From: a virus
Taxonomy: Duplodnaviria > Caudoviricetes
Virus record (IMG/VR): IMGVR_UViG_3300027861_000038
Span: 1 to 56,591 of that record
DNA length: 56,591 nucleotides
Direction: 5' to 3' (one strand)
The position numbers were made by a program, and so were the translations under genes. Of this stretch, positions 1 to 29,271 are shown one piece after another (position 1 is the stretch's first letter; the number at the start of each line of letters is the position of its first letter). The notes beneath the pieces were generated by a model. That model was given only the letters and a program-made list of their open reading frames with translations. It did no database searches and was not told where the DNA came from.

Positions 1-70
1 AAGGTTTTAGTCGGTGCTTCCGTAAAAAAAAAGGCAGTATGGAATCATTCTTGGTGGATGGTTCTTTGGA
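1..70. repeat. Left copy of terminal overlap (near-identical to 56521-56591)
   Basis: aaggttttagtcggtgcttccgta(A)n ggcagtatggaatcattcttggtggatggt occurs at both window ends. The A-run is 9 nt here and 10 nt at the right end, and there are 2 substitutions near the end. Confidence 0.95.
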
Positions 71-6000: not shown

Positions 6001-9000
6001 TGATTACGCAAAGGAAAAAAGGTGCAAGAGATTTAAACGCAATAAAAACAGAGCTAAGGAACTTTATCAGGAAGACTATACCAAAAGCCACGTACACTAA
6101 ACCTGAAGTGATAAACTTAATTAGAAAGGTTAGCATTGCGAATGAGGCAAACATTGATAATATATATAATGAGGTATTAGAGTTTACAACGAAGAAGAAT
6201 GTAGAGATACTATCTAAAAATATTAATAAGATTTTAAGTGAGACATTCACTAAGGTTGAAAGCGGTAGGCTCAAAGGTGTAAAGATTGATGTCGCAAGCA
6301 AGGAGAGAATTGATGCAATCAAGAAGATGTTAGCTACTGAAGAGATGAGTGCTGAAGATATTCTTAATGCTAATGTCCTGCTAATGGCAGAGTATGTTGA
6401 ATTGCAACAAAATCCTGAGCCGACTATTGAGAGTCAATCCAAGATGTCAGACATTCAGATAGCAATGGAATACAATAACTCATTGCTAATGGAAGATACC
6501 GATATAAACAAGGTTACCTCTTTGGATTTAGTAAGCACATCTCTTGACGAGCTAATACAGGATGGTGTTACAAGATTAGATAGAGAGCTACAGATGGCTT
6601 CTCAAAAATACAAGGAGACATTTGAGTATATATATGAGGATGTTGTTGGGGAGCGTATTGATATGGACTCTCCTGATGCCAAGACAAGATTAGACAAGGC
6701 AAAAAGAAACAGAGCCACTCAGGCTGAGAGGGAGAGAGTTGCCGGCAATATCAAACGTGCGTTGAACATTATAGGTAGAGGTATATCTAATGTCTTTACA
6801 TCTGCCGAAGCACTCGATGGATTGATGGATAAGATTTCGTCACTACCGGGAGAGATGTTTGGTGGCAGGACTCAGGAGATAGTTACAGATAGGATTGATG
6901 CCGCATCAAGAGAGTTCAAGGGTAGGAAGATGTATGTAAGTGAGAGAATCAGAAAAGAACTTGAAGAAATCTATGGTAAGAAATGGAAGGAAGAGGCAAT
7001 AAAAAACACAAAGACAATTGGTACTGAGATATATAGGGATACACAAGAGATAGCTGATGCAAAGAAAGCATACGAAGCAAATCCTAATAGTGCTACAAAG
7101 GAAAGTTTAGCTAACGCCATATTAAACAATGAATTAATCTTGAGTCCGAATCAGATGTACTATTACTACAATCAATTCAAAGACCCTGCAAACCTTGGAG
7201 CATTCTCAAATATGTTTTCTCTTGAGAGCATTAGTAAGAATGATACACAAGAAGAGAAAGACCGCAAGAATAAAATAAATGAGGCGAACGCTAAGAGGGT
7301 AATGGATGAGGTTACATCTAAGCTGACTCCTGAATTAAAAACATTTGCTGATTGGCAGGTGAATGAGTTTTTCCCTGAGCTGTATGAGAGATATAATCCT
7401 GTATATAAAAAGATATACAGGACCAATATGCCTTGGAATGAGTTCTATGCAGGTATAATATACAGACAGGGAGTTGAGCTTGAGCCAATGGATTTACTCG
7501 CAGGATTAAATAGCTCATCTATGTCAGCAGTTACAGCAGCATCAAGCAAGATAAGGAAAGCTAACAATTTAGAGATAGCTAAGACGGATGGTACGAATGC
7601 ATTAGCAAACTACCTTGAGGATATGGAATACTTTGCAGCATATGCAGAGGTTATAAGAGATGTTAATAAGCTATTTACTAACGAGTATATTTCTGATGCC
7701 ATAACAAGTATGCACGGGAAGACTACAATGAATCTAATAAACGATTCTATTAAGAAGATAGCAAACAGAGGTGTGGCTAATACAACAGCAGACAGCCTTG
7801 TTAATGGTATGAACACCATATTTGCTACATCAAGAATTGGATTGAGTCCTGTTATTGCAGTTAAGCAGTTGACATCTGTATTCACATTTGCTAATGATAT
7901 TGGTATAGGTAATTGGGTAAGCTATGCAGGCAAGAGTATACCTGAGATATCAAAGACTTGGAAGGAAATAGTTGAAAACTCTATATACCTAAAAGATAGA
8001 TATGGCGAACAGATATTAAGAAATATAGAGAGCTATAGTGAGTCGTCAATGAAAGATTTTGTGCCAAACCCTACTAAAGAATTCATTATGAATGTCATAC
8101 TATACAATGTTAAGTGGGGAGATAGGACTGCTATTATGGTAGGTGGTATGCCTAACTATAATTTCTACAAGGCACAGTATAAAAAGAATAATCCCAACGC
8201 TACCGAACAGGATGCTATTGACTATGCCATAGTAAAGTTTGAAAGGGATACAAAGAGAACGCAGCAATCAGGTGACCTTCCTGATAAAGATGTATTTCAA
8301 ACAGGAAGCCCACTTGTAAGGGCAGCGAATATGTTCTTGACAACACCAAAGCAGTATCTAAGAAAAGAGATACAGGCAGTAAGGAATCTTAGCAGGAAGG
8401 TTTCACAATGGGATAAAAATGCAGGTAAGGGTACGGTAACAGAGAACATAAGAACCTTTCTTATGTACCACATATTTATGCCTGTGCTATTCCAATATAT
8501 ATCCGCAGGGCTACCGGGATTGTTTGCTGATTGGGAGGATGAAGATGAGCAAGACTTATTGAGAGCAGGGATACTTGGTAACCTTAATGCATTGTTTATA
8601 ATAGGTGAGGTTATTACAGGCATTGGAGATTATCTTACTCATAAGCCGTGGGCAGGTGAAGGTACTAAGTCAGTTGGTTTACTAAACCTCTCATCACAAT
8701 TGTTTAAAAAAGCAAAGAAGGCAAGAGATGCAAAAGACCTTGAGAAGAAATCTAAATATTGGAATGACTTTATCTTTGAGTCTGCAACAATAACGGGTCT
8801 ACCTGTACCAACATTAACGAGATTGTTTGAAAACATAACAGACATAGGAAGCGATAATGATATGGGTAAGGATGTCTTGAGACTTTTAAACTTTTCTAAA
8901 TACCAAATAGATGGTCCGACTAAGACTAAGGCTAAGGCTAAGACTAAGGCTAAGGATGATAGTGTAAGCACTACACCGGGATACTTTAGGAGGGGTGCTA

Positions 9001-9053
9001 AAAAGAAGAGACGTTCACGAAAGAGGTCTTCAGGTGGGCGAAGATTTTTTTAG
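39..9053 (+). CDS. Giant virion/ejection-type polyvalent protein with zincin-like HExxH domain; true start probably 56356, across the junction
   Basis: 3004 aa ORF, last of three putative internal-virion genes after the tail module. It has TPIHEYGHIW (4743-4757), an acidic N-terminus, Gly/Ala-rich hydrophobic segments and an Arg/Lys-rich C-terminus. Confidence 0.75.
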   Translation: MESFLVDGSLEPQESDAEVKNLESFLTEQLEETPTQEVQPKYYEEVEAPSEAQIQDAAQADEEAERQSQVRELGGIEKVTQFDEVYDDPETQFEINLENITPELVEGSEEKVVPFLNEIFEQEGFKFEEVSPLSDQMLVYPPGGGAPKLFELDANTEIEEKFLNKGLYNPRYARRVNPTLSKNIAKELKKFITDNREEVVPEGEGKMFMTDARRKNAIKANKDREARYKNNTKEYKELNASIEKDAEVFRDLSKEDINADPETRERYESYIDNIKTAEIQREALIEETKILAEKGVELDVIAANSAEAQALRGDWLGGLYNSFLGGVGDIGAGLAGTGIDIATNFQKNAGSGLSDEQFKKEIIRVSKENDIELPENAEEMTLEGLEKAMGGRAYSRAPETYNEPTPYLQAFNKVLDISRKGKKYFDDYEGAKKGRARSVFSRTADYADLGEGTLSAIRKSVVDALGDKNTTEQWAELKSEGFLGGAVLGLSRSLPAMSAALLGGVPGVLALAAQASDSIYKEMENDPDFADISESEKMKVALPIALTVGVLERVGLRNAIRGTGMLNKLVSKAIGKSTARTTAKEFTDLVETEIASGVAKGLIRAGAAGAAEFETGFLQEIADVTVKDMYNESKGKKMFDTPDTFVDMISDAAYAGAQEAVGGFILGSPRAVQSAISGNTVLSDEEFQSLEAFVQNPELLNVYKDKLKSKVASGLMTLKGANNELTSLKTGLGIIRDTEAFFTGDVPVSEKSEAFTLVSRKKQLQQEIEGADPELVTPQREELKKVNERLTEISKIDAIQEQSTETVDAQEPAESSPTMGDTVSETETITEPTEVDKAKVEEEVAYIERRREEELNLEKPFKQKNDGSGLVEIKTTVTEEDGIKKTTFKTKTTNRKGESRELFDKGYNTIDDLFEDLGFEETYEGEEKVLRDLAQEGRIAVKEVREINGVSVASIEIAGSVLDVSLNKRNKDNAKYDAEIAEVRAAQQVEEEATTEQEVEDFEAFIESDNAQFQLSQGTTDEKTKKKQTREALKVFKELDNQPLAEDAVEVEQPDVATTPVKVEDNNRLANKIKRFKMIDIIGRKLNLLMADKLKVELKDPTKPYSKETNPYKMMGGNFFPLMEDMFGKIAWASITDAATTKIIKGAMDGDYSVVYNMGNGGIMSNIIIAEMLDEKIPEGRKAEFYELIKDRVNESGLKDVKPAKKHIKDSTDMNSFFKLLQEEKVETRAAVMELILPEDLDIKSKSTLEQELQGLGISRDSLIEETSESFAKDLPTGAITMVLEITNKDGIKVSELKKQLDKKLKNKEITENQYDKGIEDIIASAKMTQEQQEAEGIPIHNNYPYYIRGRAVAMMEETVPFYKVIKQYSDTLQERVLGRDKKKARGIKEGLKDFEERVYTIINKAKGDKVSTVDKKAAIQEVLDSEDFKKLKVKDRKVIKPLLEQALELNSKSKITEVLAVAETPLAKMRRYSAAEAQAAAMTSAMTTSSTAYAISDYVASDYEIFLNRISKSFPNVEVVSTQEEFDALIEDVYAKSLSTKNQTIYGAVYRGKLYLNPRQRNFNTPIHEYGHIWLNTAKQERPDLYKKGMELITKDNAYIEQIKNNPDYIRVVKQMKKGGATDAEIDSYIKEEALATAIGDKGEAFVNASVKRNFKEWLTDLFKNIQKLFGISTYTSEQLQDITLDEFLQGITVDILSGKEVFKDASTKAFSDALQLMTSTETKGLTPTQIIQVGRDNNFKDSTIKDYLVRIKGNKVKDIDALLSTPVDLFSDKFPESFNNIEGGAAKGTRLYDRVNKFANKLIQKNNKNTRLTDLELNAKVEEFAREQKKDYITNSQLNDKVREFRETLEAKNSKRKKPLTASQINAKVKDFRESEIIAREETNSIIQENITEFKDNLTESNNRKAPLLSKQDIVDKTIEFLEAQPEYIAEADTYTVGSEKKGTKETKRRKGLSTQQASMLSDLQKVIGIRPSQDMAAKISKARRMITQRKKGARDLNAIKTELRNFIRKTIPKATYTKPEVINLIRKVSIANEANIDNIYNEVLEFTTKKNVEILSKNINKILSETFTKVESGRLKGVKIDVASKERIDAIKKMLATEEMSAEDILNANVLLMAEYVELQQNPEPTIESQSKMSDIQIAMEYNNSLLMEDTDINKVTSLDLVSTSLDELIQDGVTRLDRELQMASQKYKETFEYIYEDVVGERIDMDSPDAKTRLDKAKRNRATQAERERVAGNIKRALNIIGRGISNVFTSAEALDGLMDKISSLPGEMFGGRTQEIVTDRIDAASREFKGRKMYVSERIRKELEEIYGKKWKEEAIKNTKTIGTEIYRDTQEIADAKKAYEANPNSATKESLANAILNNELILSPNQMYYYYNQFKDPANLGAFSNMFSLESISKNDTQEEKDRKNKINEANAKRVMDEVTSKLTPELKTFADWQVNEFFPELYERYNPVYKKIYRTNMPWNEFYAGIIYRQGVELEPMDLLAGLNSSSMSAVTAASSKIRKANNLEIAKTDGTNALANYLEDMEYFAAYAEVIRDVNKLFTNEYISDAITSMHGKTTMNLINDSIKKIANRGVANTTADSLVNGMNTIFATSRIGLSPVIAVKQLTSVFTFANDIGIGNWVSYAGKSIPEISKTWKEIVENSIYLKDRYGEQILRNIESYSESSMKDFVPNPTKEFIMNVILYNVKWGDRTAIMVGGMPNYNFYKAQYKKNNPNATEQDAIDYAIVKFERDTKRTQQSGDLPDKDVFQTGSPLVRAANMFLTTPKQYLRKEIQAVRNLSRKVSQWDKNAGKGTVTENIRTFLMYHIFMPVLFQYISAGLPGLFADWEDEDEQDLLRAGILGNLNALFIIGEVITGIGDYLTHKPWAGEGTKSVGLLNLSSQLFKKAKKARDAKDLEKKSKYWNDFIFESATITGLPVPTLTRLFENITDIGSDNDMGKDVLRLLNFSKYQIDGPTKTKAKAKTKAKDDSVSTTPGYFRRGAKKKRRSRKRSSGGRRFF

Positions 9054-15308: not shown

Positions 15309-16037
15309 TTATAGTTCTTCTGTTATGAAGTATTCATTTATATCCTCCTTTGGATTCTCACCAAAGAACTTATGATATACTGATACTGCTCTCTTTACTT
15401 TCTCTTCGCCTCTTGCTACAAACTCCTCTGATGGATGGTATATACCAAGCTGCTTTGTTGTCTTGTCTACCACATAGAATACTAATGGCTTACCAAATAG
15501 CTTCTGATATATGTAGCATTGACTATCGTAGTTATACTTACGTGCTGACCACTTGAACTGAGTGATATCTCCCGTGGTCTTTAGGTCAATCAGCTTATCG
15601 TTACATACGATGTCAGCCTTACCCTTCCATTGGAGTCCATCAATAGTTGTGATGGCAGGAACCTCATACTCTACACCCTCAGACCTTACTCCCTCAAAGA
15701 ATGATAGGTTACCCATCATTGCATTGACGCAGTCTCGAATCTCTTGTCCCTCTTTCTCAAGCATAATGATACCACCTGCATTGGCATTAACCTGCTCCTT
15801 GTATGCCTTTGTATTCCTACTTGACACATCAATGAAGTTGGTCTCTGCTGCCTTCTCAGGCTCAAGTATTAGCTGATGAAAGTATCTGCCCTTGTGATAG
15901 TTTACATTATCATTCTGTGGCTTTCTGAAGTTTGTTGGGTCATTCAGTAGTGTGCCTATGTCTGAGTTAGACAGGTACTGCTTCCCAAACGAGCCGTAAT
16001 ACTGCTCGTCATCCCTAAGCAATTCTAATACGTCCAT
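15309..16037 (-). CDS. RecE/ExoVIII-like PD-(D/E)XK exonuclease (DUF3799-like)
   Basis: LSNSDI...G..FH..ILEP, WKGKADIV, IDLKTT and YNYDSQCYIY. Confidence 0.8.
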   Translation of the reverse strand: MDVLELLRDDEQYYGSFGKQYLSNSDIGTLLNDPTNFRKPQNDNVNYHKGRYFHQLILEPEKAAETNFIDVSSRNTKAYKEQVNANAGGIIMLEKEGQEIRDCVNAMMGNLSFFEGVRSEGVEYEVPAITTIDGLQWKGKADIVCNDKLIDLKTTGDITQFKWSARKYNYDSQCYIYQKLFGKPLVFYVVDKTTKQLGIYHPSEEFVARGEEKVKRAVSVYHKFFGENPKEDINEYFITEEL

Positions 16038-16038
16038 A

Positions 16039-16680
16039 CTACTTAGTTATCTTTTTAATCTCAGCGAGTGCATTGTCGCTAAGTGTGTATGATGAACTTA
16101 TCTTTTTAACTACTGCATTGTATCCGATAGCCTTGTTCTCTTTACAGAAATTTACCAATGCCTCCCACTTAGGGGAGTCAGTATCCACTACCTCTGACTT
16201 ACTTGGTGTAGGCTTGATTGGCTCTTGTGCTATCGTATCTTGTGGCAAGTCATCGCCTGAGTATAGGTATATACCTAAGCCGAACATCGCAAGGTTCTTA
16301 ACCAAGCATCTCATAATCGTCTTATTGATATCAAATGCCGTGGCAGCAGCAACCTGCTTCTCTCCATATCGTGTAGTGTAAGAGTATGCAACCTTCTTCA
16401 TCGCTTGATTTTTGCTATCCATTACAGGTAGCCACATCGTTAGCGTCTCTCCATCTATTGTTACAGATGTGTAGCACATAATACCTAAGTCATTGTCCAC
16501 TAACATCTCGCCTATCTCATAGGTGGCATCGGGGCAGTTACTCTTTGTAAGACTCCACGCATTTGCCCAAGACAGATACGTTAGGTTACTCTTCTTCTCA
16601 ACGTATTTGTTGACGTTGATGGCAGATAACTTCTCAAAAGTAGTCTGCTTTTTTGTTGTTGTTTTTTTAGTTGTTGTCAT
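16039..16680 (-). CDS. Sak-like single-strand annealing protein (DUF1071)
   Basis: FEKLSAINVNKYVEKKSNLTYLSWANAW, MWLPVMD, DINKTIMRCLVKNLAMFGLGIYLY. Confidence 0.85.
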   Translation of the reverse strand: MTTTKKTTTKKQTTFEKLSAINVNKYVEKKSNLTYLSWANAWSLTKSNCPDATYEIGEMLVDNDLGIMCYTSVTIDGETLTMWLPVMDSKNQAMKKVAYSYTTRYGEKQVAAATAFDINKTIMRCLVKNLAMFGLGIYLYSGDDLPQDTIAQEPIKPTPSKSEVVDTDSPKWEALVNFCKENKAIGYNAVVKKISSSYTLSDNALAEIKKITK

Positions 16681-20987: not shown

Positions 20988-21320
20988 CTACCTAATTTTA
21001 TCTATTCTTTTATTATAATCTTTTGATACTTGCCTTACTTCCTCAAGTGTGCAGTCCATTTCTATGTTAGCTGAGTAGTCTATGTCATTGTCCATACAGA
21101 ACTTACCCAATGTGCATCCGTGCAATGCGTCCAATACATTTGCTTGGTTTAAGATTCGCTTTGCCTCTGTCTCATAGCCTATCCCCTTTGCCCTCTGATA
21201 TGGCATAAGGAACTCTCGCTTGAATGTCTTGGACTCAACCAAGATAGTGCCTGAGAAATAGCTTGCACCATCTACGTCATCGTAATGCTCGAAGCATTCT
21301 ACTCTTATTCTATTGCTCAT
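20988..21320 (-). CDS. Hypothetical protein
   Basis: 110 aa ORF. Confidence 0.6.
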   Translation of the reverse strand: MSNRIRVECFEHYDDVDGASYFSGTILVESKTFKREFLMPYQRAKGIGYETEAKRILNQANVLDALHGCTLGKFCMDNDIDYSANIEMDCTLEEVRQVSKDYNKRIDKIR

Positions 21321-21951
21321 TGTACCACTTAATAAATTCTATAACTACATAATGACACGCTATTAGGCTATCAGTATTAAATTCTTGATAAAGAATATCA
21401 TTACCTTTTACTATTAAACATTGCCAATCTTTATCTATTGGTTGGAAGTTCTTTTCAAATGTATATCCTAGTAACTCTATCTTCTCCACCACGGGCATCA
21501 GCCAATTCCATTCGTCATAAGGTAAAAACTCTGCCTCATACCATTCGCCACTATCAAACTCTCGGTGGTAGTACTCTGTTATGCCTTTGTTAGATACTTC
21601 CATTTCTAAATCCATAAACTCTGCTATTAATCTGTTATCTGTCATCTTACTTGCTTTGTACCACTTAATAAATTCTACTACTGCATTATGCAAAGACTTA
21701 ACATCCCATATGTTGTCGCTACCAACCTCTGTAAGTAGTGAAACAACCTCATCAAGAGGTTTGTCTATTTTGCGTGATATTTTCATTACCACAGGCATAA
21801 GCCAAGTCCAAGAGGTGTAATATTCCATTGATTCAATAGGTACTACCTCGTTTCCTTGAGGTGTCATTTGTATCATTACTGAATTATCGTTAGGGTCTCC
21901 ATAGGTCATACCCATAAACTCTGCGATTAATTTGTTGTTTAACTCTCTCAT
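21310..21951 (-). CDS. Protein with two tandem copies of an N.LIAEFM...W.WLMPVV.KI...EFIKWY domain
   Basis: Internal duplication visible in the translation. Likely start MRELNNK. Confidence 0.7.
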   Translation of the reverse strand: MRELNNKLIAEFMGMTYGDPNDNSVMIQMTPQGNEVVPIESMEYYTSWTWLMPVVMKISRKIDKPLDEVVSLLTEVGSDNIWDVKSLHNAVVEFIKWYKASKMTDNRLIAEFMDLEMEVSNKGITEYYHREFDSGEWYEAEFLPYDEWNWLMPVVEKIELLGYTFEKNFQPIDKDWQCLIVKGNDILYQEFNTDSLIACHYVVIEFIKWYNEQ

Positions 21952-21952
21952 C

Positions 21953-22162
21953 TTACTTACTTTTTTGAGGTAATACAAGGTAAACAATCGCTCCCAGTAA
22001 GGATAGAATAAACAAGGTAGTGATACTGAATGACACCATCGTAAAGATGTCATTACTCACATCCTCTGCCATTGAGACAATCATTCTCGCTGCGTTCACG
22101 AATACGAATAGCAATGCATTTGCTATTAAAAACTTCTCTGTAATTTTAATTAATTTTTTCAT
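21953..22162 (-). CDS. Small two-TM membrane protein
   Basis: Two hydrophobic helices. TAnnTTTG core at 22195-22202 (minus). Confidence 0.6.
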   Translation of the reverse strand: MKKLIKITEKFLIANALLFVFVNAARMIVSMAEDVSNDIFTMVSFSITTLFILSLLGAIVYLVLPQKSK

Positions 22163-22222
22163 ATTTTTTTTTATCTTTTTGTTGTTAATTTATTCAAAGG
22201 TAATACCTAAATTGTACAGATC

Positions 22223-22432
22223 CTAATCTGTTTCAGCTATCTCGTTTAACTTTAGCCAAAAATCCTTATATCCGTGAGCATTTACTGCAATTCCCGAATG
22301 TTGCCAATTGTGAGGCGAGTCTACTTTTTTAGTAACCTTTCGCCATCTTAATGAATTTCCACCACGAAGATGAATAGGTTTGCACCTTACCATCTGACCT
22401 ACTTTAATTCTTTCTACTTTTAAATTTTCCAT
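22223..22432 (-). CDS. Array gene 12, hypothetical
   Basis: 69 aa, downstream of hairpin R1. Confidence 0.65.
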   Translation of the reverse strand: MENLKVERIKVGQMVRCKPIHLRGGNSLRWRKVTKKVDSPHNWQHSGIAVNAHGYKDFWLKLNEIAETD

Positions 22433-22495
22433 AATATTTTTTTTCTGTTACTACCAATAGCCCTATACCAAATGGTATAGGGCTATTAGTTTGAT

Positions 22496-23047
22496 TTAGA
22501 ATGATGGGTCTCTGTACTGTTCAGCTACTCCAAAAATAATCGAAGTTCTACTGAAGTTTTTGTACTTCTTTGTCAAACCGTCAATTAGCTTATGATAGAA
22601 CATTCCTTCTCCTTCTCCTTCAACTATATCGTCATATGTCAAACCACGTTCTGATAGTAATATGTCCAGCCATCCGTATCCGTACTCCTTGTAGTACTTC
22701 TTCTCTAAGGACTTAATTATATCTACAGAGTAACTAATTTCTCCCCAACAAGATTTCTTTGCATTCCATTCTAACGTTAATGTATGTCCTTCTGAATTGT
22801 CGCTATACTCATAACGCTCGTCTCCGTAACTCTCTCCTACAAACTTAGTGTTCATTTCTTGAATCACGCAGCTCAAACCATCATCGGACACCTCAATAAC
22901 TTGGTACGCTTGTCTGTCTGAATACCCTAAAATTGTTGCACCTTCTCCAACAATTGGAATGCTTGAATTGTTGCCCATCATTTGGTTAATAAAGCCTCCA
23001 GCAACACCAACTTTTCTACTTTGTCTTTTTTCTATTTCGTTTTTCAT
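22496..23047 (-). CDS. Array gene 11, hypothetical (VGEGATILGYSDRQAYQVIEV motif)
   Basis: 183 aa, downstream of R2. Confidence 0.75.
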   Translation of the reverse strand: MKNEIEKRQSRKVGVAGGFINQMMGNNSSIPIVGEGATILGYSDRQAYQVIEVSDDGLSCVIQEMNTKFVGESYGDERYEYSDNSEGHTLTLEWNAKKSCWGEISYSVDIIKSLEKKYYKEYGYGWLDILLSERGLTYDDIVEGEGEGMFYHKLIDGLTKKYKNFSRTSIIFGVAEQYRDPSF

Positions 23048-23106
23048 AATATTTTTATACTACCAAATCCCGTACACCAAGTAGATGTACGGGTAAGTTT
23101 TTTACT

Positions 23107-23433
23107 TTAAATTTGAGACCAATCCGACCATAATTGTGCAATCAAAAGATTCTCAATATCTATTTTATTATATATCAAATGATATATATTTTCAAATGCC
23201 ATTTGCCTTTCATTTTCAAACCTTTCTCCTGTCAATATAGATGTATCAAATGGTGTAAAATCTCCAATTATTCTGCTTATTTCCCTTGCTTTGTGGTAGT
23301 ATATTACGTTTTCGTCATTATCAATCATCTCCCAAATTAGGTCATTTAGTGTATCAATATCTTCAATTTCATTGTCTGCAATTAAATCTTTGATTTGCTC
23401 TGTGTACTCGTTTATTAAATTTTCTATTGTCAT
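23107..23433 (-). CDS. Array gene 10, Ocr-like acidic DNA-mimic (anti-restriction) protein
   Basis: Start MTIENL lies right after R3. MTIENLINEYTEQIKDLIADNEIEDIDTLNDLIWEMIDN...YY aligns by eye with T7 Ocr [39 protein letters not shown]...YY (Ocr recalled from memory). Confidence 0.6.
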   Translation of the reverse strand: MTIENLINEYTEQIKDLIADNEIEDIDTLNDLIWEMIDNDENVIYYHKAREISRIIGDFTPFDTSILTGERFENERQMAFENIYHLIYNKIDIENLLIAQLWSDWSQI

Positions 23434-23479
23434 ATACCACCAAATCCCGTACACCAATTAAGATGCACGGGTATTGATG

Positions 23480-23528
23480 TGTTATTTGCACGGGGGCAAA
23501 TGTTATTTGCACGGGGGCAAATGTTATT
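23480..23528. repeat. 21-bp tandem repeat (TGTTATTTGCACGGGGGCAAA)x2.3
   Basis: Exact copies at 23480-23500 and 23501-23521, then a partial TGTTATT. Confidence 0.95.
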
Positions 23529-23532
23529 ATGA

Positions 23533-23973
23533 CTATGCACCTATAGCCCTTTCAGATTCTGCATATGCGATATTATATGCTTCCTCATTAATGCATCTGT
23601 CGTTGATGCTTAGAATTTTTTCTTGTTGTTGGGTTAAGGAATCATAGTCAATTATATTATTAATCTTAGTTCCTCCACAGGCATCACATTCAATGTCTGT
23701 TCTTCCACTAAAATAATCCTCGTGAAAACCCTCATCTATAATTCCATTTTCATCGTACATCATCGATGAAATGTCATATCCTCCCACATCATATCTTGAC
23801 CTATGCCCACTTCCATTACAGGTGTCACACCAATCAACTTTGCAAGGTAGAATGGTTTTACAAATCCCATCTGAGATAGTTATTTTAGACTTTAAATCAT
23901 CTGAGAAATCTTCTTCCTCGTATCTGTAGATAAAACTTTTGTGCAATTTGTATTCAATTTTTTTACTTTTCAT
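23533..23973 (-). CDS. Array gene 9, CxxCxGxG zinc-finger protein
   Basis: CDTCNGSG and CDACGGTK. Start MKSKK directly follows R4. Confidence 0.7.
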   Translation of the reverse strand: MKSKKIEYKLHKSFIYRYEEEDFSDDLKSKITISDGICKTILPCKVDWCDTCNGSGHRSRYDVGGYDISSMMYDENGIIDEGFHEDYFSGRTDIECDACGGTKINNIIDYDSLTQQQEKILSINDRCINEEAYNIAYAESERAIGA

Positions 23974-24037
23974 ACCACCACATCCCACATACCAATGAAG
24001 ATATGTGGGTAAGTGTTTGTGATGGGTTTGCTTTGTT

Positions 24038-24184
24038 TTAAATTATTATTAATATAAATTTCCGAAATGGCAGTTTAATTCTATAAATTGACCCGTTGTA
24101 ATTTTTGTAAGCTAATGATATTATTTTAGCTTGGTTGTAATTCTTTGCAAATGTTCCGATTCGTACTTTCATTTTTGTGTTCAT
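24038..24184 (-). CDS. Array gene 8, 48-aa basic peptide (MNTKMKVRIGTFAKNYNQAKIISLAYKNYNGSIYRIKLPFRKFILIII), missing from the ORF track
   Basis: Hand translation. It fills the slot between R4 and R5 and has the same A-rich AAAATATT-ATG leader as array genes 1, 11 and 12. Confidence 0.6.
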   Translation of the reverse strand: MNTKMKVRIGTFAKNYNQAKIISLAYKNYNGSIYRIKLPFRKFILIII

Positions 24185-24250
24185 AATATTTTTTTTCTGT
24201 TACCACCTAAACCCGTACACCAATTAAGATGTACGGGTATTGATGTGTTA

Positions 24251-24478
24251 TTATAAATTATCTCTACTTGAGTTATTTACTATCATTTGACTGGTAGGTG
24301 CTATTCCAAAATAAGTGTTTAATTTACCATATATATGTCTACAATGGTTCATTATTTTCTCTGAATCATATTCTAATTGTTCCCCTTTGTAATCTGTAAC
24401 GGGATACCATATAGTTTCAAACCCTTCATTCACGAAAGTTACCCAAGCCATTTCTTTATCTAATTCTATTCTGTTCAT
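24251..24478 (-). CDS. Array gene 7, hypothetical
   Basis: 75 aa, ATG directly after R6. Confidence 0.75.
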   Translation of the reverse strand: MNRIELDKEMAWVTFVNEGFETIWYPVTDYKGEQLEYDSEKIMNHCRHIYGKLNTYFGIAPTSQMIVNNSSRDNL

Positions 24479-24539
24479 ACTACCAATAGCCCTACACCAT
24501 TTGGTGTAGGGCTATTGTTTGTGATGTGATAAGGATTAA

Positions 24540-24767
24540 TTAATTTTCCTCTAAATGTTGCTGAATTAAATTGCTTTCTATTAAAAAGCATCCGATGATT
24601 TTAGATTGGGCAATTTCGGTTAAAATCTTATCTACTGAGTAACCTTTTATGCCGAAATTACGATACAAATATTGAATTCTTAATGCCTCAAGTAATTCTT
24701 GTGCATCGCCATTTAAGATTTGCTTTTTTTCAACTTCTACCAATTTATTAAATTCTTTTCTTGTCAT
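24540..24767 (-). CDS. Array gene 6, hypothetical
   Basis: Start MTRKEF directly after R7. Confidence 0.7.
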   Translation of the reverse strand: MTRKEFNKLVEVEKKQILNGDAQELLEALRIQYLYRNFGIKGYSVDKILTEIAQSKIIGCFLIESNLIQQHLEEN

Positions 24768-24826
24768 ACTACCAAATCCCACAAACCAATTAAGATTTGT
24801 GGGGATTGTTTTGTGATATGTTTGGA

Positions 24827-25048
24827 TTAATGGAAATATAAATCTTCGTGAGACGTTGCTCCAATTGGCTCGCCATACACATAGTCGTTTATTGCCTTAT
24901 CCATCAACTTGTAATAGATGGAATCGATGTACTCATCCCTACAATTGCTTTGCATCTGGTTACCATCGCTGAAATGCACTTTAAACACTGGACTCATTCC
25001 TGCTCTAACGCGATAAATTTTAGTTACTTTTAAATCTGTTTTTGTCAT
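24827..25048 (-). CDS. Array gene 5, hypothetical (MTKTDLKVT...)
   Basis: 73 aa, ATG directly after R8. Confidence 0.75.
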   Translation of the reverse strand: MTKTDLKVTKIYRVRAGMSPVFKVHFSDGNQMQSNCRDEYIDSIYYKLMDKAINDYVYGEPIGATSHEDLYFH

Positions 25049-25104
25049 ACTACCAAAACCCGTACACCATTAAGATGTACGGGTATTGATGTGTTTGTTG
25101 TTGT

Positions 25105-25368
25105 TTATGTCCAATAATTTTTAATCCTCAAACCTTTAGTTCTTATGGCTTCATTCATTTCGGCAGAACTTACGGTAAAAAAATTATCTTTGAAATCTTG
25201 AAAGAATTCGTAAGAATTTTCCCAATTTTCTATGTGTTTTTTTGAATCCACGAAAAGAAATGCTTCTTCTTCGCTTTCAAACTCATCGATAACTTTGTTA
25301 TTGTTACCTCCATCTATTAAAAAATAGGTGCTTTCATTTGTTGTTACTTTTAAATCTGTATCTGTCAT
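25105..25368 (-). CDS. Array gene 4, hypothetical (MTDTDLKVT...)
   Basis: Start directly after R9. Confidence 0.75.
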   Translation of the reverse strand: MTDTDLKVTTNESTYFLIDGGNNNKVIDEFESEEEAFLFVDSKKHIENWENSYEFFQDFKDNFFTVSSAEMNEAIRTKGLRIKNYWT

Positions 25369-25428
25369 ACTACCAATACCCCACATCCATTGTCTAGGAT
25401 GTGGGGTATTGTTTGTGATGTGATGTTG

Positions 25429-25674
25429 TTAGTATAATTCGCTTTTTTCGATTCGCTTTACCTCATATTTTGGCAACTCATAGCAATAGTCTAAATATTT
25501 ATCAAATGAACTTTCGCATTTTTTGTCCCATTTTTTGTAGGATTTTTCATCCCCTTCGCTATCTGCAATGTTTCTTAGATTGTCGTATTCATTGTACTTT
25601 TTTAGCCATTGTATGGCCTTCTTGAAATTGCTTTGATTCGCTTTATTTTTTGCTTTAAATTTTGTATCTTTCAT
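25429..25674 (-). CDS. Array gene 3, hypothetical
   Basis: 81 aa, ATG directly after R10. Confidence 0.75.
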   Translation of the reverse strand: MKDTKFKAKNKANQSNFKKAIQWLKKYNEYDNLRNIADSEGDEKSYKKWDKKCESSFDKYLDYCYELPKYEVKRIEKSELY

Positions 25675-25729
25675 ACTACCAAAACCCCTACACCAAATGG
25701 TGTAGGGGTATTAGTTGTGATGGTCATAA

Positions 25730-25975
25730 TTATCCTTTATAATTTACCTTTATCCAACTTAATAAAATGTCTTTGTTTTGGTCATCTAATTCCATAAACC
25801 AAGAAAAAAAAGCTAGTGTACCTTTTCGTTCATACATATCGCTAAACTTAGATTGTAAGTGATTTGACATACTATCCTTCCATACTTGTGAGATGAAATT
25901 TGTAGGGTAATTATGCCCAAATAACATAAATTTAGTGATTGCTTTTGATGTGTTTTTAAAATCTGTGTTTGTCAT
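25730..25975 (-). CDS. Array gene 2, hypothetical (MTNTDFK...)
   Basis: 81 aa, after R11. Confidence 0.75.
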   Translation of the reverse strand: MTNTDFKNTSKAITKFMLFGHNYPTNFISQVWKDSMSNHLQSKFSDMYERKGTLAFFSWFMELDDQNKDILLSWIKVNYKG

Positions 25976-26034
25976 ATACTACCAATAGCCCTATACCAAA
26001 TGGCATAGGGCTATTGCTTGTGATGGGTTAGGGA

Positions 26035-26358
26035 TTAAGATAATAATCTTTTAATATCTGCTTCTGTTTTTTTACGTTTAGCTGATTCCATTTCGTATGC
26101 AATCACCTCTTTTTGCACAAACCATTCCACAACTGCTCTGTTTTCATCCATACCATCACAACCCCAACTTGTGCCCGAAACACCGTCTTTTTTAACCCAC
26201 ATAACTGCTTGGAATAAATCACCATACTTTGGATTGATTTCTACACGATAGTTTACTTCCAATCCATTCTCAAGATGAATAGTTTTCTTGCCGTTTTCTT
26301 TGTTTGCTACAACTGCAAATCTGTCTAATTTCTGTAATAATTCTTTAACGTTTTCCAT
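26035..26358 (-). CDS. Array gene 1, hypothetical
   Basis: 107 aa, after the divergent hairpin R12. Confidence 0.75.
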   Translation of the reverse strand: MENVKELLQKLDRFAVVANKENGKKTIHLENGLEVNYRVEINPKYGDLFQAVMWVKKDGVSGTSWGCDGMDENRAVVEWFVQKEVIAYEMESAKRKKTEADIKRLLS

Positions 26359-26428
26359 AATATTTTTTGCTTTATATCACCAAAACCTCGCAGCCGTGGT
26401 ATGGCTCGAGGTTCCAATTTATTTTAGT

Positions 26429-26440
26429 ATGTCAATGAAC
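26429..26440 (-). promoter_or_regulatory. boxA-like antitermination motif GTTCATTGACAT
   Basis: Resembles rrn/lambda boxA (GCTCTTTAACA) and lies in the array leader. Confidence 0.45.
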
Positions 26441-26511
26441 CAGGGTAGTCCCTACTATAGTGTCCAATAAAATGGACGCTGCTTTCGGGGTCGGTTACCT
26501 TTTCAACAATG

Positions 26512-26519
26512 CAAATATA
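26512..26519 (-). promoter_or_regulatory. Bacteroidota -7 promoter element TATATTTG driving the early array
   Basis: CAAATATA on the + strand matches TAnnTTTG. It is ~155 nt upstream of array gene 1. Confidence 0.65.
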
Positions 26520-26705
26520 ATATCACAGATATCATATAAACTAATTTCTTTGTAAAATAAATTAATCTTTTGTTAATATATTATCTTGTATCTCAGCAAT
26601 ACTGCGCCTTTCAGAGCGAAATTTTTTTTGTGTTTTTTTCCCTTCATTCGTTTAGGCTGGCAAAATTGCGCCCAGGGATTAAGCCTTCCCTCAAGGTATG
26701 CAGGC

Positions 26706-26857
26706 TATATATATATATATTGTATGGGGATATTATACGGGTATGGGGTAACGGGTAACGGGTAACGGGTATAGGTACGGGGTGCGTAAAACGGGTAGGT
26801 AGGTAGGTAGTGCCATAGATAATGTAGGTAGGTATGTAGGTAGGTAGTGCCATAGGT
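26706..26857 (+). repeat. Low-complexity G-rich block: (TA)n, (GGGTAAC)3, (GTAG)n, GTAGGTAGGTAGTGCCATAG x2
   Basis: Read directly. It lies at the divergence of the two transcription arms. Confidence 0.9.
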
Positions 26858-26984
26858 AAACGCCAAAAAATTGGACTGCAGGGATCACATCAACACCCCA
26901 CCCTAACTTTTTTTTTCGGTTTTCTTTTTCGGCAACTTTGCGTGCAACCCCCTATAACCCAAATAGTATATACAACTAATGTGT

Positions 26985-26992
26985 TATATTTG
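26985..26992 (+). promoter_or_regulatory. TAnnTTTG promoter core (first of a set)
   Basis: Other + copies upstream of genes: 27651, 30146, 31217, 34418, 41048, 44578, 52938. Minus copies: 10870, 18185, 22195, 26512. Confidence 0.7.
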
Positions 26993-26995
26993 CAT

Positions 26996-27139
26996 ATGAG
27001 TTATAAGATATCAATACACAATCGCATATTCATAGGCTTCGCATTGGGATGGAGTTACTATGGGAAGACAGAGGAATATGACTACAGTGAGTTCACATTG
27101 TTCTTAGGGTTGTTGAGTATCGTTATAGTAAGAAGTTGA
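26996..27139 (+). CDS. Small hydrophobic protein (MSYKISIHN...)
   Basis: ATG just after the promoter core. 47 aa. Confidence 0.55.
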   Translation: MSYKISIHNRIFIGFALGWSYYGKTEEYDYSEFTLFLGLLSIVIVRS

Positions 27140-27143
27140 TATT

Positions 27144-27341
27144 ATGAAAATGTTTAAGTATAAAAGTATGGGCGGTCTTCGAGTAGAGGACGGTAGATTA
27201 GTTAACGACCGTGAAGACGGTGTAACAGGAATTGCGAAAGCTGCAAACGTCAAACAGATGATGAAGCGAGCAAAGAAAGTTGATATGATAGCGGACGGAA
27301 TTAGTCTTGCTGAAGCCAAGAAAGGATTTTATAGGATGTAA
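27144..27341 (+). CDS. Hypothetical protein
   Basis: 65 aa, followed by a terminator. Confidence 0.65.
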   Translation: MKMFKYKSMGGLRVEDGRLVNDREDGVTGIAKAANVKQMMKRAKKVDMIADGISLAEAKKGFYRM

Positions 27342-27368
27342 ACCTATAATTTTGTGTTGTTCATTTAT

Positions 27369-27395
27369 AAGGGAATTTAACGATTCCCTTTTTTT
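27369..27395 (+). terminator. Intrinsic terminator
   Basis: AAGGGAAT-ttaacg-ATTCCCTT followed by a T-run. Confidence 0.8.
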
Positions 27396-27445
27396 GTGTT
27401 TGTTTTTTACATTTCAATGCTCTTTTTATGCTCTTTTTTTTCTTC

Positions 27446-27566
27446 TAACTTATTGACTATCAATAGTAGTGTTTAAAATGCTTATTTTTTCTTTCAAAAG
27501 TTCTATAAGTAAAAATATATATTACTACTACTACTACTACTACTATAGGGGAACCGGAATTTTACA
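27446..27566. repeat. Copy 2 of ~120 bp non-coding element, contains (TAC)7
   Basis: Homologous to 14820-14937. Confidence 0.75.
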
Positions 27567-27687
27567 TTGAGCATTGTTGGGATTGTTGGGAGTAGTTGGG
27601 ATTATTCCTAACTCCCAACTTTGGTATTACCCTAAGTGAATATTTTTATGTATCTTTGCAATAGAATTAAATACACTCTAAAATTAT

Positions 27688-29271
27688 ATGTCAGAAATCG
27701 GATACACTCCCAAGAACTTATTGTTCAATGAAGATGGTAGAGAAAGATTATTCTCAGGTATTGAGAAATTAGCAAATGCGGTCAAGTCAACATTAGGACC
27801 ATCAGGTCAGACTGTACTTATCGAGTCCCCACAACACACACACGGAATCACAGTTACCAAAGATGGTGTAACGGTAGCCAAGTCAGTATCACTCCTTGAC
27901 GCTACAGAGAATCTCGCTGTACGCATTATGAGGGAGGCAAGTGAACGAACTGCGACTCAGGCAGGTGATGGTACTACAACAGCCATAGTATTGGCTGAGG
28001 CACTCGTAAAAGAAGCCTACAAGCATTTGAACGATGGTAAGCACAACAAGACTATGGTATTGAGAGATATCGTAAGTGAGACTGAGAAGATTGTAAGCGA
28101 GTTAAAGAAGAAGAGCCGTAAGGTAAACAAGTCGACCCTAAGGGATGTGGCTACCATATCAGCGAACAATGACAAGGAGATTGGCTCCATCATCGCTGAG
28201 GTGTACAAGAAATTAGGCAAGCACGGTGTTGTTGCGGTTGACAAGTCACAGACCTCTGAGACATACTATGAGGCAACGAGTGGTATCAAGATTGACCGAG
28301 GGTATGCAAGCCCATTGTTTGTGAACGACCAAAAGAAGGACGAGTGTGTACTTGAGGACGTATTCATCTTGGTATCAGATGCAACGATTGAGAACATACT
28401 TCAGATTGAGACGGTATTGAAACCAATCATTCAAGAGAACAAGCGACTATTGATAATAGCCCCGACATCGGGGAATGTGACGAACACATTAGCTGCGAAT
28501 GTTATGAAGAGTAACTTACAGTTGTGTGCGATACAGCCACCAAACTTTGGATACAAGCAGCACGAGCTTATGCAAGACATAGCGATAAGTGTTGGTGCAA
28601 CGTACTTTAGTGAGAAGACGGGTGATGACCTAAGTCATATGACGTTTGCTGACTTGGGACACGCATCAAGGGTTGTGGTAGGCACAGACTCAACGGTTGT
28701 GATAAAGGATGACAATGCGTTAGAGGATGAGATTAAGAGTAGAGCAGAGGAGTTAAGGATTGCTGCTGACAATTCAACCAAGAAGGCAGACAAAGAGTTT
28801 ATAATGTCAAGGATAGCCTCATTGATGGGTGGCGTAGGTGTCATCTATGTAGGTGGGAATACTGACCTTGAGCAGAAAGAGTTATACGATAGGGTTGACG
28901 ATGCGGTATGTGCGGTACGTTCGGCACTTGAGGAGGGTATACTACCCGGAGGAGGCGTTGCCTTGTACAAGATGGCTGAGGGTATTGACACGAGCACGGT
29001 ATCGGGTAAGATACTATCAAAGGCTTTAATGGCTCCAATGTTGCAGATATATGAGAATGCAGGACTGACTGTAGGTGGCTCACGTATGAGTGATGAGTTT
29101 AACTACGGACAGGACGTAAAGACTGAGGAGTATGGAGATATGTACGAGTTGGGTGTTATAGACCCTGTAAAGGTTACGAAGTGTGCATTGCAGAATGCGG
29201 TGTCGGTTGCAGTAACTATCCTATCAACCAATGCTATCATCACGATGGCGAGAACATACGAAGACAAATGA
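27688..29271 (+). CDS. groEL: Phage-encoded chaperonin GroEL
   Basis: AVKSTLGPSG, TKDGVTVAK, AGDGTTTA, VATISANND, GILPGGG and GVIDPVKV. Confidence 0.97.
   Translation: MSEIGYTPKNLLFNEDGRERLFSGIEKLANAVKSTLGPSGQTVLIESPQHTHGITVTKDGVTVAKSVSLLDATENLAVRIMREASERTATQAGDGTTTAIVLAEALVKEAYKHLNDGKHNKTMVLRDIVSETEKIVSELKKKSRKVNKSTLRDVATISANNDKEIGSIIAEVYKKLGKHGVVAVDKSQTSETYYEATSGIKIDRGYASPLFVNDQKKDECVLEDVFILVSDATIENILQIETVLKPIIQENKRLLIIAPTSGNVTNTLAANVMKSNLQLCAIQPPNFGYKQHELMQDIAISVGATYFSEKTGDDLSHMTFADLGHASRVVVGTDSTVVIKDDNALEDEIKSRAEELRIAADNSTKKADKEFIMSRIASLMGGVGVIYVGGNTDLEQKELYDRVDDAVCAVRSALEEGILPGGGVALYKMAEGIDTSTVSGKILSKALMAPMLQIYENAGLTVGGSRMSDEFNYGQDVKTEEYGDMYELGVIDPVKVTKCALQNAVSVAVTILSTNAIITMARTYEDK

Follow-up and report, generated by a model that had tools for sequence, protein, structure and literature searches.

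The closest known system to the locus described here is that of the promoter-early stem-loop (PeSL) cassettes of T4-type phages. In two reports on them (Arbiol et al. 2010, PMC2839356; Comeau et al. 2014, PMC4122927), short intergenic stem-loop repeats that end at the start codon flank the orphan genes of a hyperplastic region. The insertions, deletions and replacements that distinguish close relatives are explained there by recombination between the repeats; crossovers map in the loop and beside the ATG, and no dedicated recombinase is known. We here analyze a stretch of 56,591 bp, called the window throughout, which is the entire IMG/VR record IMGVR_UViG_3300027861_000038 of a tailed phage, a marine Flavobacteriia-type podophage. 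Twelve small genes lie on its minus strand in the 22223-26432 region and run from 26358 to 22223 (R12 to R1), with one hairpin cassette before each. This locus is probably a hyperplastic array of small genes that is shuffled by recombination at repeated front ends, with the hairpin serving as punctuation of the mRNA. It differs from the PeSL regions in belonging to a Bacteroidetes podophage, and thus to another host phylum and phage type, in a cassette with no recognisable promoter and no terminator call on the gene strand, in a shared unit that reaches 5-14 codons into the gene and makes chimeric N-termini, and in a stem with a G·U bias on the RNA strand, while hammerheads occupy the same slot in sister lineages.

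Tandem phage hammerhead ribozymes are a second parallel; they too place structured RNA between single small genes of a long phage transcript and, according to Perreault 2011 (PMC3088659), are proposed to cut long transcripts into gene-length mRNAs. The correspondence with the window extends to exactly the same genomic slot and strand in 21 sister loci. Unlike hammerheads, however, the window cassette has no CUGANGA...GAAA core and no Rfam ribozyme match, and self-cleavage is not indicated. Integron attC arrays are made of short open reading frames (ORFs) and imperfect palindromes that are conserved in structure over sequence, with variable cargo; the short ORFs of the window are likewise separated by imperfect palindromes and its cargo varies, but it has no integrase and no fixed crossover point, N-terminal fusions occur, and the hairpin is upstream of, and fused to, each gene start. 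Phage T7 carries RNase III processing hairpins between its early genes. In the window, too, stable hairpins stand immediately ahead of start codons and would punctuate a polycistronic phage message; here, unlike in T7, the cassettes belong to one repeat family and double as recombination sites, and cleavage would be a role suggested by analogy. Finally, in T-even phages a capsid-targeting leader is common to diverse internal proteins, and so provides another case of a short N-terminal leader on unrelated genes of a variable locus. The window differs in having several unrelated leader types conserved at the nucleotide level, with no protease site or targeting function indicated.

Leaders and cargo in the window and its relatives

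The window (38% G+C, rated 93% complete) encodes a terminase, a portal, a primase-helicase, a helicase and, at 27688-29271, GroEL. Relatives of the terminase are found in an uncultured podovirus (MW202828.1, 75% identical) and in podophages of Flavobacterium, Cellulophaga, Tenacibaculum and Maribacter. Relatives of the locus were gathered with a GroEL-anchored scan of viral contigs, in which the best 80 of 436 relatives were kept; one of them, L003, is a close relative (GroEL identity 98%, flanks 92-95% identical to the window). A search with a cassette pattern recovered the L003 contig again together with L084, and a stricter pattern recovered 14 metagenome contigs with 1-4 matches apiece, whereas a looser pattern applied to viral contigs returned 43 stretches, 42 of which had one match each and were judged mostly chance. 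The cassette-bearing sources number 17 with the window included, the related contigs 16, and the comparisons use metagenome short-read assemblies. The array of MW202828.1, the nearest GenBank relative, is equivalent but has no hairpin cassettes, and the cassette was not found in the cultured relatives elemoA and phi38:1.

An earlier note on this DNA had reported that unrelated array genes begin alike. The minus-strand translations MTKTDLKVT (ATG at 25048, R8), MTDTDLKVT (25368, R9), MTNTDFK (25975, R11) and MKDTKFK (25674, R10) do stand at these starts, and in a BLASTP comparison among the 12 array proteins these four are alike only at residues 1-9, 1-12 or 1-22, with no mutual similarity elsewhere in the protein. 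R8 and R9 align with 24 of their first 26 nt identical, and the DNA string that the note had described as common to them is 34 nt long and occurs exactly twice in the window (25023-25056 and 25343-25376) and in none of 100 shuffles.

The R9 cargo, with its core TYFLIDG, was found behind four N-termini: MTDTDLKVTTNES in the window, MTNTDFKNTSKAI in P0002, MENLKVTSNEN in P0003 and, in Nonlabens phage P12024S, a plain MK start with a stop upstream of it. Three of the four are nucleotide-identical to leaders of other cargo, and MTNTDFKNTSKAI corresponds to the first 13 residues of the R11 gene. The R10 cargo (KAKNKANQ) bears the leader MKDTKF in the window, L129, L138 and L140, MTNTDF in L003 and L127, and MTRTEF in L136. 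The L003 copy of this family is identical to the unrelated R11 gene of the window from -3 to +21, with the R10 family beginning at about +14, and the L136 copy has its hairpin and leader (-44 to +20) in common with an R7-family gene of L127. The first residues of the R11 gene, for which the homologs found were close relatives only, recur on other cargo, seven of them on R10 cargo (L003, L127) and 13 on R9 cargo (P0002). Other families behave in the same manner: R8 cargo occurs behind three different stems; three codons, ATGAAAGAT, stand ahead of the native ATG of a cargo in L134 that is found behind a class 2 leader in L128; R3 orthologs in L003 and L127 start MTNTNLINDY; and the R1 position of L003 holds an unrelated cargo behind six nearly identical codons, with homology returning at the stop codon. 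These comparisons show hairpin type, leader type and cargo to assort independently and in-frame chimeric N-termini to arise.

The note had expected homology to begin only past the leader and homologs not to carry the same N-termini. For R9 the match to PHROG 33529 does begin at residue 14. For R10, a family with 82 representatives in a 50%-clustered library is conserved only from about residue 7, and most homologs in an alignment of 30 of the 82 start 0-4 residues ahead of the conserved A-x-N-x-K-N-Q, which places the first six residues of the window protein outside the core; a cassette-free homolog in L066 starts MNYKGIDIKNKAN. R8 is the exception, with distant homologs (59-65% identity) that start MKNELKVV and MSDTLKVT. 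Since LKV(T/V) is kept at this distance, the xLKVT leader is, as judged from these alignments, native to the R8 family, which probably donated it.

Shared starts also exceed chance. Over nt 4-27, mean identity was 10.5/24 in 66 pairs of array genes versus 7.5/24 in 1830 non-array pairs (maximum 17), a comparison that was computed with a wrong R9 start. We clustered proteins of at least 40 aa by BLASTP after removal of their first 12 residues, which gave 26 cargo families from the 17 sources; 21 of 325 family pairs have their first 15 nt or more in common, one mismatch being allowed, and 0 of 1830 control pairs do, the longest prefix there being 14. The sequence TTTAA occurs within the first 27 nt of 6/12 array genes and 4/61 others (Fisher p 8e-4). 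A third shared leader, ATGGAAAATTTAAAAGTA or MENLKV(TSN), which the note does not have, heads at least five families. Shared leaders span 5-14 codons. The unit proposed in the note, hairpin plus start plus up to about nine codons, is exchangeable relative to its cargo but has leaders that reach 13-14 codons.

These data bear on an account without exchange, by which the N-termini would be alike through paralogy or through convergent selection for A-rich, unstructured first codons. The R8 start would fit it, as would the IKVG families (fam9 and fam34), which have about 12 N-terminal residues alike and may be paralogs, the A-rich starts that every gene of the phage has, and the tuning of Flavobacterium translation by mRNA structure that is described in one report (PMC6847099). 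We regard it as very improbable, given a single cargo with four N-termini, PHROG and family alignments that begin past the leader, the excess of 15-nt prefixes over control pairs and the lack of similarity past the leaders; for R9 and R10 it is already refuted. Another pair of families, fam10 and fam24, gave a weak alignment.

The leader might instead be a peptide tag with a function of its own, such as targeting or degradation, a proposal modeled on the T-even capsid-targeting leader and compatible with the short N-terminal peptides that unrelated small proteins of one locus have in common. To this we give hardly any credence: there are several unrelated leader types (MTxTD[LF]K, MENLKV, MKSKEI, MNTKMKV), position 3 of the leader is free to be K, D, N, R or H, leaders are identical as nucleotides but where they differ the amino acid mostly changes, and the same cargo occurs with and without leader. 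Chimeric N-termini of 5-14 residues imply that the starts of such orphan proteins are not to be read as part of a fold or family. As a separate observation on cargo, a 237-aa family of L134 and L136 is split in L003 (6890-7602, minus strand) into a 16-aa start and a 203-aa ORF, and the gene that follows has no cassette.

Crossover sites and recombination functions

Gene orders differ among the 14 metagenome contigs. The L003 array measures 2.6 kb versus 4.3 kb in the window and has an R10-type gene directly beside an R3-type gene; L138 matches window genes R12-R7 with one additional gene between the R9 and R8 cargos; and L127 and L136 have common families in different order. We also aligned contigs from four runs of four studies to positions 21500-27000 at 85% likeness and recorded the joints. 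Among the 15 joints listed (of 23), 19 of the 30 ends fell by hand count inside cassette intervals (ATG-27 to the cassette 5' end +10), which account for 21% of positions 21500-27000; 12 of these 15 joints had at least one end there. One joint had 20 shared letters, and the joint 24473 -> 23969 was present in all four runs. Among the sequencing runs listed as containing the DNA, 20 were DNA runs and none was an RNA run.

The note had suggested that breakpoints be mapped in related genomes. They scatter across about 100 nt and include the hairpin loop, GGURGU/AUG and codons 2-14. Contigs are mosaic in their combinations of hairpin type, GGURGU type, leader and cargo; in one chimeric hairpin (L136_8945) a left arm of the first-cassette type and an R9-type right arm stand on either side of a shared loop, and the arms are unpaired. 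The alignments show that related phages have exchanged, deleted, inserted and re-ordered array genes by recombination within the repeated front ends. They provide breakpoints at nucleotide resolution, in natural populations, for the turnover of small accessory genes in a phage outside the T4 group. A different rearrangement is seen in L135 (1834-1899), where one palindromic cassette hairpin has GGURGU and AUG on both strands and serves two divergent genes, which suggests an origin by inversion through the hairpin.

Scattered breakpoints fit exchange driven by homology or microhomology and not a fixed site. Two genes of the window encode candidate functions:

16039..16680, minus strand: Sak-like single-strand annealing protein (phrog_659, E 7e-49)
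15309..16037, minus strand: exonuclease VIII-like nuclease, partner of the annealing protein (phrog_412, E 6e-28)

By these matches the Sak-like annealing protein is the likely recombination engine. A search for tyrosine recombinases gave 0 PF00589 matches in the 93%-complete genome, while the control search was positive in 14/14 genomes. Integron core sites read RYYYAAC / GTTRRRY and have a single crossover point. Integron-like capture, in which a recombinase would read the hairpin as single-stranded DNA and insert promoterless cassettes at a fixed point, is consistent with short ORFs between imperfect palindromes, with stems that vary while flanks are conserved and with gene content that differs between relatives. 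Scattered crossovers and the absence of an integrase nevertheless argue against it, breakpoints extending over about 100 nt and not over one triplet; furthermore, the 3' flank UUDGGYRRU does not fit the attC consensus GTTRRRY, and the G·U bias of the stem (below) indicates coding-strand RNA. We consider it highly improbable. Of the gene capture proposed in the note, the in-frame exchange is retained, and the dedicated capture mechanism is not.

The twelve cassettes as RNA elements

Each cassette has a C/A-rich flank (consensus ..CAUCACAAACAAUA) and then an 8-15 bp stem-loop, UUDGGYRRU and the start; across the aligned cassettes (alignment A1) the flank consensus is ...CACAAACAAUA / UUDGGYRRU. 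In class 1 (R3, R4, R6-R11) the AUG directly follows UUDGGYRRU, and in class 2 an A-rich stretch ending in AAUAUU-AUG intervenes. The note had described this second class as near-identical at R1 and R5 and related at R2 and R12, and so it is: GGTRGTAACAGAAAAAAAATATTATG occurs exactly twice, at R1 (22430-22455) and R5 (24182-24207), and never in shuffles, with shorter relatives at R2 and R12. With a covariance model (CM) of 64 distinct cassettes, the 56.6-kb genome has 12 sense-strand matches, every one of them on the minus strand within 22450-26423; the array thus packs 12 copies into 4.2 kb, and its cargo has no Pfam match above cut-off. Cassettes and cargo are as follows, in the direction of the genes.

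26376..26423, minus: cassette R12, first after the intergenic region; CM 38.2 bits; stem type CCUCGAGCC; class 2
GGUGAU + AUAAAGCAAAAAAUAUU + AUG at 26358, minus: R12 leader, from sequence
26035..26358, minus: R12 cargo, 107 aa, starts MENVKELL; no known family
25978..26029, minus: cassette R11, class 1 plus two additional bases (GGUAGUAU-AUG); CM 62.9 bits; fold z -5.4
25730..25975, minus: R11 cargo, 81 aa, leader MTNTDFK
25675..25727, minus: cassette R10, class 1; CM 66.4 bits; fold computed
25429..25674, minus: R10 cargo, 81 aa, leader MKDTKF; family core from about residue 7 (KAKNKANQ)
25369..25424, minus: cassette R9, class 1, stem type CCCCACAUCC; CM 60.0 bits; fold computed
25105..25368, minus: R9 cargo, 87 aa; 13-residue leader MTDTDLKVTTNES foreign to the family; core TYFLIDG
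25049..25102, minus: cassette R8, class 1, stem type CCCGUACA; CM 59.7 bits; fold computed
24827..25048, minus: R8 cargo, 73 aa, starts MTKTDLKVT; LKV(T/V) native to the family
24768..24822, minus: cassette R7, class 1; CM 64.1 bits
24540..24767, minus: R7 cargo, 75 aa, starts MTRKEFNK
24479..24530, minus: cassette R6, class 1; CM 70.3 bits; fold z -6.5
24251..24478, minus: R6 cargo, 75 aa, starts MNRIELDK
24202..24254, minus: cassette R5, class 2, GGUGGU + AACAGAAAAAAAAUAUU + AUG at 24184; CM match
24038..24184, minus: R5 cargo, 48 aa, starts MNTKMKV
23974..24028, minus: cassette R4, class 1 (GGUGGU-AUG); CM 50.9 bits
23533..23973, minus: R4 cargo, 146 aa, Cys-rich, starts MKSKKIEY
23436..23483, minus: cassette R3, class 1 (+AU); G·U pair in stem; CM match
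23107..23433, minus: R3 cargo, 108 aa, starts MTIENLINEY
23059..23111, minus: cassette R2, short class 2 (GGUAGU + AUAAAAAUAUU + AUG); CM match
22496..23047, minus: R2 cargo, 183 aa
22450..22495, minus: cassette R1, class 2; CM match
22223..22432, minus: R1 cargo, 69 aa, starts MENLKVERIKVG

The gene that comes next after the array (ATG 22162) is preceded at 22163-22202 on the minus strand by an A-rich leader like that of class 2 and a TACCTTTG box, without a hairpin, and this leader is the end point of two population joints (22178, 22185). Beyond the clade, the motif TTGAGGTGGTA follows structured elements in L031 (3 copies) and L053 (2 copies) and was found nowhere else. Both are more distant relatives. 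L031 has an intergenic hairpin, UUGAGGUGGUA and an A-rich leader (e.g. about 16379, minus strand). In L053 a family of GAGGUUCA hairpins lies on the minus strand at 4348, 5848, 6339, 7534 and 7787, and one copy matches the Rfam DUF805b RNA.

In the 64 distinct cassettes, 87.6% of cells are paired, compared with 73.1% in shuffles and 31-45% with slid partners. Compensatory double changes occur at 11/15 stem pairs, the observed values being reached by 0/500 shuffles, and there are 22 inner-stem types. Read on the mRNA-sense strand, the inner stem has 42 G·U/U·G against 5 A·C/C·A pairs. Covariation and the G·U bias on this strand together indicate that the stem acts as RNA of the coding strand. 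The cassettes fold with energies of -20 to -31 kcal/mol (z-scores -2.8 to -6.5), and in the predicted fold of several class 1 cassettes the conserved CAU of the flank pairs with the AUG.

The slot beside GroEL is occupied differently in sister phages. There we found type III hammerhead motifs (33 matches of 63-80 bits in 21/97 sources, all on the array strand) with covarying stems, an intact CUGANGA...GAAA core, a hairpin before each and an ATG 20-35 nt after. The loci are L007, L008, L009, L014-L017, L024, L026, L027, L030, L035-L037, L039, L040, L055, L062, L063, L078 and L081, an example being L039 8046-8101 on the minus strand; with the Rfam model they score 41.4 bits, under the gathering cut-off of 48.5 bits. 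The hammerhead model built from the sister phages had 0 matches in the window and in all 17 cassette-bearing sources, the window cassette had no Rfam ribozyme match, and outside the cassette-bearing sources the cassette model had only one weak match in the 97 sources, in L019. Hairpin cassette and hammerheads are mutually exclusive in one genomic slot, and the cassette is, in terms of position, the counterpart of the sister-phage hammerheads. This exclusivity provides a testable handle on the purpose of phage hammerheads, and bears on the expression of polycistronic mRNA in hosts without Shine-Dalgarno pairing.

Two further observations concern the hammerheads themselves. By hand count in alignment A3, 8/23 have U opposite U at the usual G-C closing pair of stem II by the core (e.g. 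L008 7160-7215, L015, L030 and L039 4187-4242), and these may be slow or regulated variants. In the cultured Flavobacterium phage vB_FspP_elemoA_13-1A (L141, 20116-20173) a hammerhead-like motif with core CUGAAGA...GAAAC scores 33 bits and lies about 14 nt upstream of the first small-array gene, which makes elemoA a possible laboratory model.

Signals for transcription were sought in the cassettes. Sigma-70-type sites are at background (28 found versus 27.1 expected), and TAnnTTTG, which we take to be the Bacteroidetes -7 box consensus, is present inside none of the 12 cassettes; a promoter specific to the phage may still be there. One such box lies upstream of the array:

26512..26519, minus strand: TATATTTG, candidate Bacteroidetes-type -7 box upstream of R12, by consensus match

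A second TAnnTTTG box occurs downstream of the array, and boxes before R12 and after the array make a single long transcript plausible. An intrinsic terminator would be a G+C-rich hairpin with a U run behind it; terminator calling identified no cassette on the gene (minus) strand and four on the opposite strand, and the cassette tails read UUUUGGUAGU or UUUAGGUGGU. Rfam at gathering threshold returned nothing in the window, and in E-value mode gave chance-level matches only on 22000-27700.

A true PeSL-type cassette would be a promoter and terminator, possibly for a phage-specific polymerase, that makes each gene its own transcription unit. The layout is alike, with a repeat that ends at the start codon and crossovers in the loop and beside the ATG (Arbiol et al., PMC2839356), and a 3004-aa ORF of the window could hide a virion polymerase. 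The background level of sigma-70-type sites, the absence of -7 boxes from the cassettes, hairpins that are not called terminators on the gene strand, an ORF without DFDxD motif and the use of ribozymes, which act on RNA, in the same slot of sister lineages all speak against this interpretation, which is very unlikely. The 3004-aa ORF (39-9053, plus strand) has no Pfam, PHROG or PDB sequence match, and its homolog in MW202828.1 bears an implausible annotation name; promoters of an N4-like or crAss-like virion polymerase were considered and dropped in view of these results. A preprint on phage phi14:2 reports no common upstream motif for early transcripts (bioRxiv 10.1101/2020.03.07.982082).

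GGUGRU, which is complementary to AUCACC of the 16S 3' tail, lies 0-2 nt from the AUG in class 1 and 11-20 nt in class 2, and a Shine-Dalgarno-like reading of GGURGU does not fit the class 2 spacing. In array genes the predicted unpairedness is 0.70 from -3 to +24, compared with 0.57 in other genes (p 5e-4), and 0.30 from -20 to -1, compared with 0.60, i.e. the array genes are more paired there. Outside the array, gene leaders are simply A-rich and similar to the class 2 stretch. In these predicted folds the pattern is in line with a role in start exposure. Bacteroidia ribosomes are described as disregarding Shine-Dalgarno sequences (PMC7797042, PMC13000453), and initiation in Flavobacterium as set by mRNA structure and not by Shine-Dalgarno pairing (PMC6847099, PMC7797042).

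A model of the array, and neighboring sequences

We propose that every gene of the array carries a portable front end, in which the C/A-rich flank and a stable stem-loop are followed by UUDGGYRRU, the start codon and a small number of A-rich codons. The annealing protein and exonuclease of the phage would recombine homologies of 20-60 nt and microhomologies such as (A)TTTAA(A), with no site-specific recombinase taking part. Leader codons would then be hitchhiking pieces of the 5' ends of neighboring genes, tolerated and probably favored because the first eight or so codons stay unstructured beside a hairpin on their 5' side, a property that would matter in a host without Shine-Dalgarno pairing. 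Repeated front ends of this kind would give new genes a ready-made start and first codons. In the polycistronic mRNA the hairpin would act as intercistronic punctuation, that is, as a processing, stability or insulation element, and would do the job of the hammerhead ribozymes in the same slot of sister phages.

Several points weigh against this model. The role in processing, stability or insulation is inferred from position and analogy. The greater accessibility of the leaders may be mere A-richness, TTTAA, enriched at +9 to +20, could serve as a functional signal beyond being a microhomology, and the conserved GGURGU and C/A-rich flank are left without a role in the explanation. The native LKV(T/V) of R8 and the possible paralogy of the IKVG families complicate any simple picture of fixed leaders and foreign cargo; fam9 and fam34 may be, and fam10 and fam24 perhaps are, distant paralogs. 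Many of the population joints have sides of 30-42 letters at 85% likeness and may stem from other organisms or from repeats. In metagenome assemblies, moreover, chimeric joins of gene order can arise at repeats of about 50 nt; leader-cargo junctions, however, have overlaps of only some 8 nt and were seen again in independent contigs, which identifies them as real sequence and not as assembly chimeras.

A more specific function can be envisioned for the same elements, in which cassette and leader form a plug-and-play expression adaptor, a specific RNA-processing site fused to a standard start and codon ramp. The cassette would be cut by a host or phage RNase, or would possibly cleave itself, and would have replaced the hammerheads of sister phages; any ORF recombined in frame behind it would be released from the polycistronic transcript, its translation having a set level, and the C/A-rich flank and GGURGU would become recognition or catalytic elements. 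We view this possibility as rather unlikely, and prefer the model of shuffled front ends with a punctuating hairpin.

Sequences around the array show additional irregularities. The large intergenic region between the array and GroEL contains odd short tandem repeats at 26650-26870 (GGGTAAC units and GGTAGGTA units), and near 26440-26447 several runs have indels and one replaced stretch of 45 letters. On the other side, a 247-aa ORF (21310-22053, minus strand) has an internal duplication, with 21320-21354 resembling 21656-21690, and one run skips 226 nt in this region (21684 -> 21911).

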